From a virus (Duplodnaviria > Heunggongvirae > Uroviricota > Caudoviricetes), in IMG/VR virus record IMGVR_UViG_2526164691_000033, positions 1 to 42,138 of that record: a stretch of 42,138 bases of DNA, one strand, 5' to 3'. The translations under genes and the position numbers were made by a program. The first letter of the stretch is position 1; every line of letters starts with the position of its first letter. Positions 6,551-7,834 of the stretch are shown here, piece after piece. The notes beneath the pieces were generated by a model. That model was not told where the DNA came from, did no database searches, and was given only the letters and a program-made list of their open reading frames with translations.

Positions 6551-6808
6551 ATGCAGCAGTATCACTATCCACTGGAAGACGGATTTACCGAAAGGATTCA
6601 CACGCCGGGAGGCGTCAGGTCACTGGTGGAGGGATCGCACTTGATGAAATTACTCCGGGATCTCGATAAGGATGGATTTAATGTCGATGGCCCACTTGCC
6701 GAACTGACTGCACTGATTAACTACGTCACCAGCTCACAGATGTCTATGCGGGATCTGCAAACACATCTCGACTATTGTGCCGAACAATTACGAAAACAAA
6801 CCAGATAA
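6551..6808 (+). CDS. small protein homologous to the C-terminal domain of the adjacent antirepressor; candidate SOS-induced mini-antirepressor
   Basis: GGAG 8 nt upstream of ATG at 6551; product aligns by eye with the Ant C-terminus (shared L-M-x-LL, DG-x-V-x-G-x-AEL, LRD-x-QTH-x-Y; about 40 percent identity over 70 aa). Confidence 0.6.
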   Translation: MQQYHYPLEDGFTERIHTPGGVRSLVEGSHLMKLLRDLDKDGFNVDGPLAELTALINYVTSSQMSMRDLQTHLDYCAEQLRKQTR

Positions 6809-6839
6809 GATTTGAAATTACCAAGAGGAGTGCTTATAT

Positions 6840-6854
6840 TTACCTTTGCGGTAA
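6840..6854. promoter_or_regulatory. operator motif TTACCTTTGCGGTAA inside 11-bp inverted-repeat arms
   Basis: Perfect TTACC-N5-GGTAA; flanked by AAGAGGAGTGC (6823-6833) and its reverse complement GCACTCCTCTT (6864-6874). Confidence 0.5.
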
Positions 6855-6938
6855 ATTTACATCGCACTCCTCTTGTGCCATAGTAATCGGGCACTGGCAA
6901 AATCCAGTGCCGGGATTGGCGTCCCGAGTTACTAAGTG

Positions 6939-6972
6939 GCGCATACCACGCCAGACGTGGTTTTTTTATGCG
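6939..6972 (+). terminator. rho-independent terminator
   Basis: CCACG-CCAGA-CGTGG followed by TTTTTTT, with outer GCGCATA/TATGCG pairing; preceded by hairpin GGCACTGG-CAAAAT-CCAGTGCC (6890-6911). Confidence 0.55.
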
Positions 6973-7123
6973 TTAAGCACAGCCATATCCGAATTATGGT
7001 GGGCTGGGCAGGGGTCCGAAAGGACGCCGGTACCACTTAGGCCGGTACGCCAACCTTGTCCAGTTCACCACCAGTAATTGGCGTTGCGGTGGTGATTAAA
7101 ATCACTAAGTGGAGATAACCACC

Positions 7124-7834
7124 ATGGCTAATGCTCAAACTGCCATCTTCAAATTTGAATCTGTTAACCCTATCCGTTCCATCATTATCGATGGCCAACC
7201 ATGGTTTGTAGCCCAAGACGTTTGTAGTGCGCTGCGTATCCAAAACGTCACCCAAGCACTTGAAAAACTGGATGATGATGAAAGGTCTATGTTCAACATA
7301 GGGCATGAACATCGTGCAATTTTTGACAGCCGAGTAAAAGAGATCAACATCATCTCCGAGTCAGGCCTCTACACACTGATCCTCCGCTGCCGCGATGCGG
7401 TGACACCAGGCACTATCCCCTACCGCTTTCGTAAATGGGTTACAGGTGAGGTTCTTCCTCAGATCCGCCGCACCGGAAGTTACATTAAAAACTCGCTACC
7501 GCAGGAAGAACGCATAAAGATGGTTGCCGACCAGGTAGCCAACGCCACGGCGTCAGCAGTAATGCAGGCAATGAAGATAGAGAACAAAACCTACAGTGCC
7601 CCACTGAAGCCCGGCTACCGTAGCCTGATTCATTCGCCGTCTGGTGTTCTCGGCCTGACGGAGCACTCACTGCTGATGAATCTGCTGAACCAGTTACAGG
7701 AAGACGGGCACGACGTATCGGGCGCGGCGGCGGAGCTGACCACCATGTTCTGCTACATCGTCGGTGTGAGCAAATGCCTGCGTGATATCCAGACCCACGC
7801 GGAGTACATCAACGACAAGGCTGGGTTCTTCTGA
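7124..7834 (+). CDS. ant: antirepressor (Bro-N/AntA-type N-terminal domain plus C-terminal domain)
   Basis: GGAG 9 nt upstream of ATG at 7124; N-terminal region (FKFESVNPIRSIIIDGQPWFVAQDVCSALRI...) typical of Bro-N/KilA-N antirepressors; sits beside the tailspike gene as P22 ant does. Confidence 0.7.
   Translation: MANAQTAIFKFESVNPIRSIIIDGQPWFVAQDVCSALRIQNVTQALEKLDDDERSMFNIGHEHRAIFDSRVKEINIISESGLYTLILRCRDAVTPGTIPYRFRKWVTGEVLPQIRRTGSYIKNSLPQEERIKMVADQVANATASAVMQAMKIENKTYSAPLKPGYRSLIHSPSGVLGLTEHSLLMNLLNQLQEDGHDVSGAAAELTTMFCYIVGVSKCLRDIQTHAEYINDKAGFF

Follow-up and report, generated by a model that had tools for sequence, protein, structure and literature searches.

Rep, the repressor of the Salmonella phage SPC32H, is reportedly left uncleaved in the SOS response and inactivated instead by the small antirepressor Ant, whose promoter is LexA-repressed (Kim & Ryu 2013, J Virol; Kim et al. 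2016, PNAS; PDB 5D50, 5D4Z). The crystal structure of SPC32H Ant in complex with Rep is available as PDB 5D50, and secondary descriptions present Ant as tetrameric, with two Rep dimers bound via their C-terminal domain and the DNA-binding Rep tetramer broken as a result. Another form of antirepressor control is typified by the immI region of P1 and P7 and by the isrK-orf45-anrP region of Gifsy-1, where an a1/b1 leader (IsrK), a C4-type RNA, duplicated target sites at the ribosome-binding site and an antirepressor gene lie on one transcript. In Gifsy-1, short IsrK turns on translation of the antirepressor-like AnrP from a read-through transcript, leading to prophage induction (PMC4825925). A third system, Ant of P22, is a modular antirepressor in which an N-terminal 'regulatory' domain (P22_AR_N) is joined to P22_AR_C under Arc/Mnt control. 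Here we analyze a stretch of 42,138 nucleotides from an Escherichia coli prophage of the epsilon15/phiV10 group (genus Uetakevirus; IMG/VR record IMGVR_UViG_2526164691_000033, positions 1 to 42,138), hereafter the window, in which a small ant gene is followed by a gene encoding a Bro-N domain fused to a second copy of the Ant domain. In the fused gene, an SPC32H-type Ant domain serves as the exchangeable C-terminal module and control is by antisense RNA of the P1/Gifsy type, the parts themselves being known. We consider it reasonably probable that a single Rep-targeting module has here been placed on two inputs, namely the SOS response via LexA and an RNA immunity circuit via C4 and IsrK.

The sequence of the locus is 100% identical to that of E. 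coli strain F2_407_2_2 and 93-99% identical to those of the phages HEMP4, TL-2011b, ZX5 and phiV10, and it is matched in 534 of 5426 complete E. coli genomes (about 10%). The two genes and the elements discussed with them, as open reading frames (ORFs), domains and sites, are as follows.

3734-6355, minus strand: tailspike gene, one flank of the two-ant region
6512-6531: predicted LexA (SOS) box TACTGTATATTTATACAGTT, 20 nucleotides 5' of the small ant start codon
6551-6808, plus strand: small ant ORF, 85 amino acids, ATG start, GGAG before the start
7124-7834, plus strand: Bro-N-Ant fusion ORF, 236 amino acids
7172-7459, plus strand: Bro-N domain (PF02498), fusion residues 17-112; Pfam E=9.6e-20, 71.4 bits against a cut-off of 25.6
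Between Bro-N and the C-domain of the fusion, plus strand: helical linker
7586-7816, plus strand: SPC32H-Ant-like domain, fusion residues ~155-231; match to 5D50_E, E=2.2e-13
From 9966, minus strand: virion structural genes, other flank of the two-ant region

The Ant domain and its two copies

The original prediction, that an antirepressor C-terminal domain is present twice at this locus, once standing alone and once fused to Bro-N, is borne out by both ORFs and by their alignment. BLASTP aligns residues 2-75 of the small Ant with residues 155-228 of the fusion, ungapped and with 32 of 74 identities (43%, against the predicted figure of about 40 percent; E=4e-16). The Smith-Waterman score of the two proteins, 163, lies far above the maximum of 61 reached in 2000 shuffles (mean 26.9, standard deviation 4.4; z=31). 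The shared motif blocks noted earlier are real, with their spacing corrected to DG-x2-V-x-G-x2-AEL and RD-x-QTH-x2-Y, and the common region begins near residue 155 of the larger protein instead of near residue 165. At the profile level, both proteins match PHROG 450 (88 positions, 'unknown function'; E=7e-48 for the small Ant and E=7.6e-36 for the fusion) and PDB chain 5D50_E, annotated 'Anti-repressor protein', which the small Ant matches over its full length (residues 2-84 to 3-85, E=1.4e-46) and the fusion with the E-value listed above. The domain is without any Pfam or NCBIfam model; a weak DUF724 match of the small Ant in Pfam, at 17 bits where the cut-off is 38, was regarded as noise. 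By tblastn, these two are the only copies in the window.

The aligned codons of the two copies show 47% nucleotide identity and only 28%, the chance level, at third positions, which argues that the paralogy is ancient and that no recent duplication took place. Likewise, the copies are 35-39% identical within a single genome in E. coli, Enterobacter (Tyrion) and Klebsiella phages alike, and the paralogy is therefore older than these lineages. Judged by these values, the two copies are ancient paralogs.

The small protein is 84.7% identical over its full length to SPC32H Ant and is encoded at the same genomic position, adjoining the tailspike gene. Its ratio of nonsynonymous to synonymous substitution rates (dN/dS), 0.07-0.08, indicates purifying selection. 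The predicted LexA box before it, TACTGTATATTTATACAGTT, holds an exact CTGT-N8-ACAG and matches the 20-nucleotide E. coli consensus at 18 of 20 positions, as counted by hand; SPC32H, 65FD, Tyrion, phiV10 and a Klebsiella phage all have it at the equivalent position. Thus the likeness to SPC32H comprises an Ant ortholog of about 85% identity in the same place by the tailspike gene, the same LexA box and a two-domain, non-cleavable type of Rep, whereas SPC32H lacks the second copy, the IsrK/C4 region and the Bro-N gene, and its Rep is only 43% identical to that of the window. By homology, the small gene is an already known antirepressor. The suggestion that the standalone copy is a minimal repressor-binding module was essentially right, the standalone protein being the ortholog of an Ant crystallized with its repressor. 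Since it is this ortholog, the standalone copy is the archetype and not a fragment of the Bro-N protein; the earlier framing is therefore to be inverted, and it is the Bro-N protein that bears the archetype as an exchangeable C-terminal module.

Predicted antisense-RNA control and activity of the Bro-N fusion

The region between the two ant genes contains the elements of an antisense-RNA circuit, including IsrK, a small RNA.

6856-6884, plus strand: isrK promoter-like site TTTACA-17-TGnCATAGT, from a promoter scan
6891-6967, plus strand: IsrK small RNA; Rfam RF01394, 67.2 bits against a gathering threshold of 50
6945-6968, plus strand: IsrK intrinsic terminator, at the end of IsrK
6992-7075, plus strand: C4-type antisense RNA; Rfam RF01695, 66 bits against 45, full-length model
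7078-7084, plus strand: C4 target site UUGGCGU in the ant leader, exact complementarity to C4
7105-7112, plus strand: C4 target site CUAAGUGG in the ant leader, exact complementarity to C4

The isrK promoter-like site ends 7 nucleotides before IsrK and would start transcription at about 6891, exactly where the Rfam isrK match begins; it is near-invariant in the relatives from E. coli, Enterobacter and Klebsiella. In its 5' part, IsrK also resembles RF03163 (c4-a1b1) at 6878-6930, scoring just under the threshold (44.3 against 46.7 bits). Two single-stranded stretches within C4, ACGCCAA (7047-7053) and CCACUUAG (7033-7040), are exact complements of the two target sites, both of which are held in the 48 nucleotides that separate C4 from the start codon of the fused gene. 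The CUAAGUGG site overlaps the Shine-Dalgarno GGAG of this gene, and both target sequences are duplicated in IsrK, at 6916-6922 and 6932-6939, as decoys of the a1/b1 type. IsrK and C4 lie above their Rfam thresholds 5' of the fused gene in the window and in all six scanned E. coli and phage relatives with the fusion (6/6). In the Salmonella relatives SPC32H, 65FD and SPNIS2 neither the IsrK/C4 region nor the fusion is present, and the small ant gene is followed straight by structural genes. The separate transcription proposed for the two copies accords with these elements: a conserved LexA box and a ribosome-binding site precede the small gene, and a conserved promoter, the IsrK terminator and C4 precede the large one.

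The order of leader, C4-type RNA, duplicated targets at the ribosome-binding site and antirepressor gene, on what would be one transcript, is that of P1/P7 immI and Gifsy-1. The window differs from both in that a C4 target overlaps the Shine-Dalgarno sequence of ant itself and in that the conserved leader ORF (icd in one system, orf45 in the other) is not evident between C4 and ant, only a 20-codon ORF with a TTG start being found at 7056-7118; a 37-codon ORF annotated in ZX5 is interrupted in the window, as read from the frames. Here C4 would occlude the ant ribosome-binding site directly. In the allele of E. coli AREA_494 that bears an ORF6N domain (locus L006 2181-2687), an extra ORF for a hypothetical protein of 168 amino acids is situated between C4 and the antirepressor gene, whose start it overlaps; by analogy, it may be a leader gene comparable to icd or orf45. 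The protein product also sets the window apart from P1 Ant and Gifsy-1 AnrP, its C-terminal domain being the SPC32H Ant domain, with no KilAC/ANT or P22_AR_C in the Pfam scan.

A strong inverted repeat, AAGAGGAGTGC...GCACTCCTCTT, at 6823-6873 encloses a palindrome at the isrK promoter and has an RNA fold of -32 kcal/mol (z=-5.2). It was considered as a terminator or RNA element between the genes and rejected as a conserved RNA structure: the arms are unconserved in Tyrion and only partly conserved in Klebsiella, unlike the enclosed palindrome and promoter, and there is no U-tract.

The closest functional data come from ORF4, named 'anti-repressor', of the E. coli phage ZX5 (vB_EcoP_ZX5), which occupies the same locus and has the same architecture of Bro-N plus C-domain. 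Upon its overexpression lysogeny was reduced, prophage titre fell from 1e9 to 1e6, about 1000-fold, and transcription of the repressor was cut by 75% (PMC9782041). Its C-domain is 99% identical to that of the window and the ZX5 Rep is 100% identical; ORF4 differs in carrying another Bro-N allele, with 85% overall identity to the window fusion. That paper recognizes neither the small Ant and its LexA box nor the shared domain and the RNAs, and LexA and SPC32H are absent from its text (PMC9782041). The evidence for the putative antirepressor activity of the fusion against the resident Rep consists of the overexpression of this homolog, together with the co-occurrence of domain and Rep described below.

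Structure prediction was less informative. AlphaFold2 gave a predicted local distance difference test (pLDDT) score of 36 for the 236-amino-acid protein as a single sequence, which is useless, and of 56 with an alignment of 28 sequences, the C-domain reaching 54-71. The top Foldseek match of this low-confidence model is 5d50_H (E=0.08, template-modelling score 0.74 on the target), which is consistent with homology and not independent proof of it. Such poor models would fit an obligate oligomer.

The oligomeric nature of Ant bears on the original prediction's second idea, in which the small protein is a dominant-negative regulator of the full-length Ant; mixed complexes of small and fused subunits, inactive or altered, would be a way for this to come about. 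In favor of it, SPC32H Ant is tetrameric and the conserved blocks are common to both copies; however, the small protein is the characterized antirepressor, active on its own in SPC32H and in every Salmonella relative that lacks the fusion, overexpression of the ZX5 fusion promotes lysis rather than blocking it, and the copies differ at about 60% of positions, which argues against a conserved mixed interface. A dominant-negative role of the small protein is not supported, and of all the explanations considered here we give mixed oligomers the least credence.

Exchangeable N-domains, Rep and the putative operators

Other E. coli prophages have ORF6N (L006) or AntA (L007) in place of Bro-N at this locus, and the C-terminal 85-95 residues remain nearly identical; elsewhere, outside this locus, the C-domain is joined to pRha. 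An exhaustive profile search with the domain against 1.84 billion representative proteins recovered only 62 clusters, most of them of 80-95 amino acids and a few being fusions to Bro-N, AntA, ORF6N or pRha. Of 50,697 phage records, 35 contain the domain, and every one of these (35/35) also encodes a Rep homolog of the SPC32H type, which beyond them is found only in one E. coli record and, as a weak partial match, in Pseudomonas. The small copy is present in each of the 19 phage records with the fused copy (19/19). None of the 35 records bears the name Gifsy, and AnrP is set apart by record names and Pfam only. With one C-domain found behind many N-domains and alongside one repressor type, we argue from these distributions that the C-domain is the constant part and carries the repressor specificity. 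Compared for divergence, the C-domain and the resident Rep give 78% and 78% between the E. coli and Tyrion lineages, and 52% and 46% between those of E. coli and Klebsiella. These values are suggestive only, given three or four lineages, of the fused C-domain tracking Rep in a way that the small Ant does not.

In TL-2011b (NC_019445.1 31060-32244; locus L014 5061-6245), a third copy was observed in which P22_AR_N is joined to the same C-domain, directly behind an Arc-like repressor gene; it is identical to the C-domain over its last ~80 residues. This protein recalls P22 Ant in its modular build, its N-terminal 'regulatory' domain and the Arc-like gene before it, but differs from it in that Pfam finds P22_AR_N only, the C-part being SPC32H-Ant-like. 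The window itself differs from P22 in being without Arc/Mnt.

A 95-amino-acid family of Klebsiella and Raoultella was entertained as a "standalone type 2" Ant and rejected: its frame continues upstream into the Bro-N linker (…RYVRDELSPADKAQKVVASF-MPA…), and its members are therefore 3' remnants of fused genes. These remnants (L008 9300-10440; L012 9300-10300) directly follow an AlpA-like gene and a series of repeats of the GAACCAACA type. Those of L008-L010 are at the edge of a P4-like element with genes for primase, Ash and Bro-N and with its own isrK/C4 (L008 19016-19256), and the palindrome TTACC-N5-GGTAA described below still follows the Raoultella/Klebsiella remnant.

Such remnants belong to the case for regarding the fused gene as a decaying passenger, i.e. 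a moron remnant of no present role whose shared domain records past recombination. The gene is frameshifted in phiV10 and in O157 typing phages 9 and 10, has an internal deletion in P0042, is truncated to its 3' end in Klebsiella and Raoultella, and is missing from some phages with the same Rep; being absent from these, the fusion is accessory. Yet it is intact in the window and most relatives, and across genera the dN/dS of the fused C-domain is 0.23-0.29, indicating purifying selection, with 0.17-0.19 in Bro-N. Moreover, the regulatory RNAs, the promoter and the C4 target sites are conserved, and the ZX5 protein has an overexpression phenotype. We hold the passenger explanation to be very improbable. 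In phiV10 (locus L001 3819-4498) and the two typing phages the frameshift falls inside the Ant-like domain, and in phiV10 the gene is annotated as a 194-amino-acid protein plus a 29-amino-acid ORF, under the name 'putative anti-immunity protein'.

The repressor and the palindromic sites are as follows.

35985-36569, plus strand: Rep, SPC32H-type repressor, 194 amino acids; match to 5D50_A 'Repressor' over the full length, E=4e-42
3191, 6460, 6840, 7901, 25403, 28545, 28563, 33505, 33567, 35530, 35867, 35915, 36628, 36689: TTACC-N5-GGTAA sites, from a motif scan
6460-6474: palindrome TTACCTTTCAGGTGA, 5' of the small ant promoter, putative Rep operator
6840-6854: palindrome TTACCTTTGCGGTAA, putative Rep operator abutting the -35 of the isrK promoter
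7901-7915: palindrome TTACCTTAAAGGTAA, 3' of the fused ant gene, closing the cassette
35867-35929: palindrome cluster, putative main operators in the divergent rep/cro-like intergenic region

Rep is the presumed target of both Ant domains. Pfam assigns it helix-turn-helix families only, with no S24 peptidase domain for self-cleavage. Its identity to SPC32H Rep is 43%, falling to 36% over the C-terminal half, as against 85% between the small Ants, and this contrast suggests either a very conserved contact surface or a recombination that uncoupled the ant/tailspike region from the immunity region.

With one mismatch allowed, the window contains 14 copies of the palindrome TTACC-N5-GGTAA where 0.7 would be expected, and nearly all of the sites are intergenic when compared with the ORF map. 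The site at 6460-6474 has the same position 5' of ant in SPC32H, 65FD and the Klebsiella phage. That at 6840-6854 is kept, with a varying 5-nucleotide spacer, next to a near-identical promoter in the E. coli, Enterobacter and Klebsiella relatives, and the site that closes the cassette has equivalents in ZX5, AREA_494 and A1.S1.18. Sites of the same motif are also found in the rep-cro intergenic regions of SPC32H, Tyrion and the Klebsiella phage. We infer that these palindromes are Rep operators. As a palindrome of the type found in the rep-cro operator region abuts the isrK promoter, Rep probably represses the isrK-C4-ant operon too. The overall pattern resembles that of a repressor operator scattered over the genome, as in P1, and brackets the antirepressor cassettes.

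The fusion might also be an anti-immunity or cross-talk device directed mainly, like P22 or P1 Ant, against another Rep, that of related resident prophages encountered on superinfection or that of co-resident elements, rather than a second arm of the induction switch of its own phage. The resident small Ant is only about 39% identical to the fused domain, and the fusion is under a separate control of the P1 immI type. The cassette is mobile, with swapped N-domains and absence from the Salmonella relatives, its gene fragments reside in P4-like elements of Klebsiella and Raoultella, TL-2011b has its third, Arc-controlled copy of P22 type, and the phiV10 annotators named the gene accordingly. On the other hand, ZX5 ORF4 affects the very phage that encodes it, and the Rep of that phage is identical to that of the window. 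Furthermore, divergence of the fused C-domain is roughly parallel to that of the resident Rep (in three lineages only), and every phage record with the fusion also has an SPC32H-type Rep. As the primary explanation we regard this as unlikely, and it is in any case compatible with the two-input switch, the two not being mutually exclusive.

A proposed two-input switch for prophage induction

The two-input switch would operate in the following manner. Rep, having no self-cleavage domain, would have to be removed by an antirepressor. In the lysogen, Rep would occupy the early promoters and probably the isrK promoter, LexA would occupy the small ant promoter, and C4 would block translation of the fusion. 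DNA damage would remove LexA, upon which small Ant would be made, bind Rep and strip it from DNA. The promoter of the fusion operon would first yield IsrK, and read-through of the terminator would then give C4 RNA and the ant mRNA. The C4 loops would pair with the two leader sites, of which one lies over the Shine-Dalgarno sequence, keeping translation off until the decoy sites of IsrK titrate C4 and relieve the block. Loss of Rep would thus open the isrK promoter, IsrK would titrate C4, and Bro-N-Ant would add Rep-sequestering capacity and reinforce the switch. Alternatively or in addition, an incoming genome might express the fusion before C4 builds up and so counter immunity from a related resident prophage, in the manner of P1 and P22 Ant. 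If Rep does repress the operon, the fusion would be made after Rep begins to fall, or by an incoming phage against immunity.

Several points weigh against the two-input switch. The two Ant domains are only ~40% identical and need not share a target, and binding of Rep by either Ant of this phage is a prediction. With Rep 43% and the small Ants 85% identical between the window and SPC32H, specificity is unreadable from sequence. The operators were assigned from position and enrichment only, and the structure models are of low confidence, at pLDDT 36 and 56. The ZX5 assay employed an overexpressed protein tagged with glutathione S-transferase, in which the two domains were not separated (PMC9782041). 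The E. coli phages PAS61 and YDC107_2 have an identical Rep and the small copy only, and the frameshifts in phiV10 and the O157 typing phages make the fusion dispensable for a viable temperate phage.

A more far-reaching version, which we put forward tentatively and hold to be doubtful in its entirety, is that the SPC32H Ant fold serves as a portable "Rep warhead", which recombination has joined to no fewer than five unrelated N-terminal regulator domains and brought under three or more circuits (LexA, C4/IsrK RNA and Arc). The cassettes bracketed by Rep operators would then form a two-stage switch in which the fusion locks the decision, and the N-domain might tether the protein to DNA or to a second target.

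Some neighboring features deserve mention. Two overlapping ORFs on the plus strand, 7958-8284 and 8271-8783, follow the cassette on its 3' side. The first belongs to PHROG 5933 (unknown function), and the second is YafO-toxin-like in Pfam with a score below the threshold (E=9.5e-4), relatives being annotated as a YafO family toxin; the two may be a toxin-antitoxin or moron pair. A gene for a GtrA-like membrane protein at 3202-3597 adjoins the tailspike gene, one TTACC-N5-GGTAA palindrome covering its start, and suggests O-antigen modification. A tRNA-Arg(TCT) gene lies in the middle of the prophage (25740-25816).

These prophages form a common family, in which the small antirepressor is almost always annotated as 'hypothetical protein', and the tie to the solved SPC32H Rep-Ant complex provides them with an induction mechanism. 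The combination of one repressor-specific module with interchangeable Bro-N, ORF6N, AntA, pRha and P22_AR_N domains is a clean natural experiment, which indicates the half of the widespread "Bro/Ant" proteins that carries repressor specificity and sharpens the question of what the N-domain does. Antirepressors that bear the same warhead under LexA and antisense-RNA control would constitute a compact model of two-signal prophage induction. The interest of the locus lies chiefly in annotation and in its use as a tidy model of modular antirepressors.

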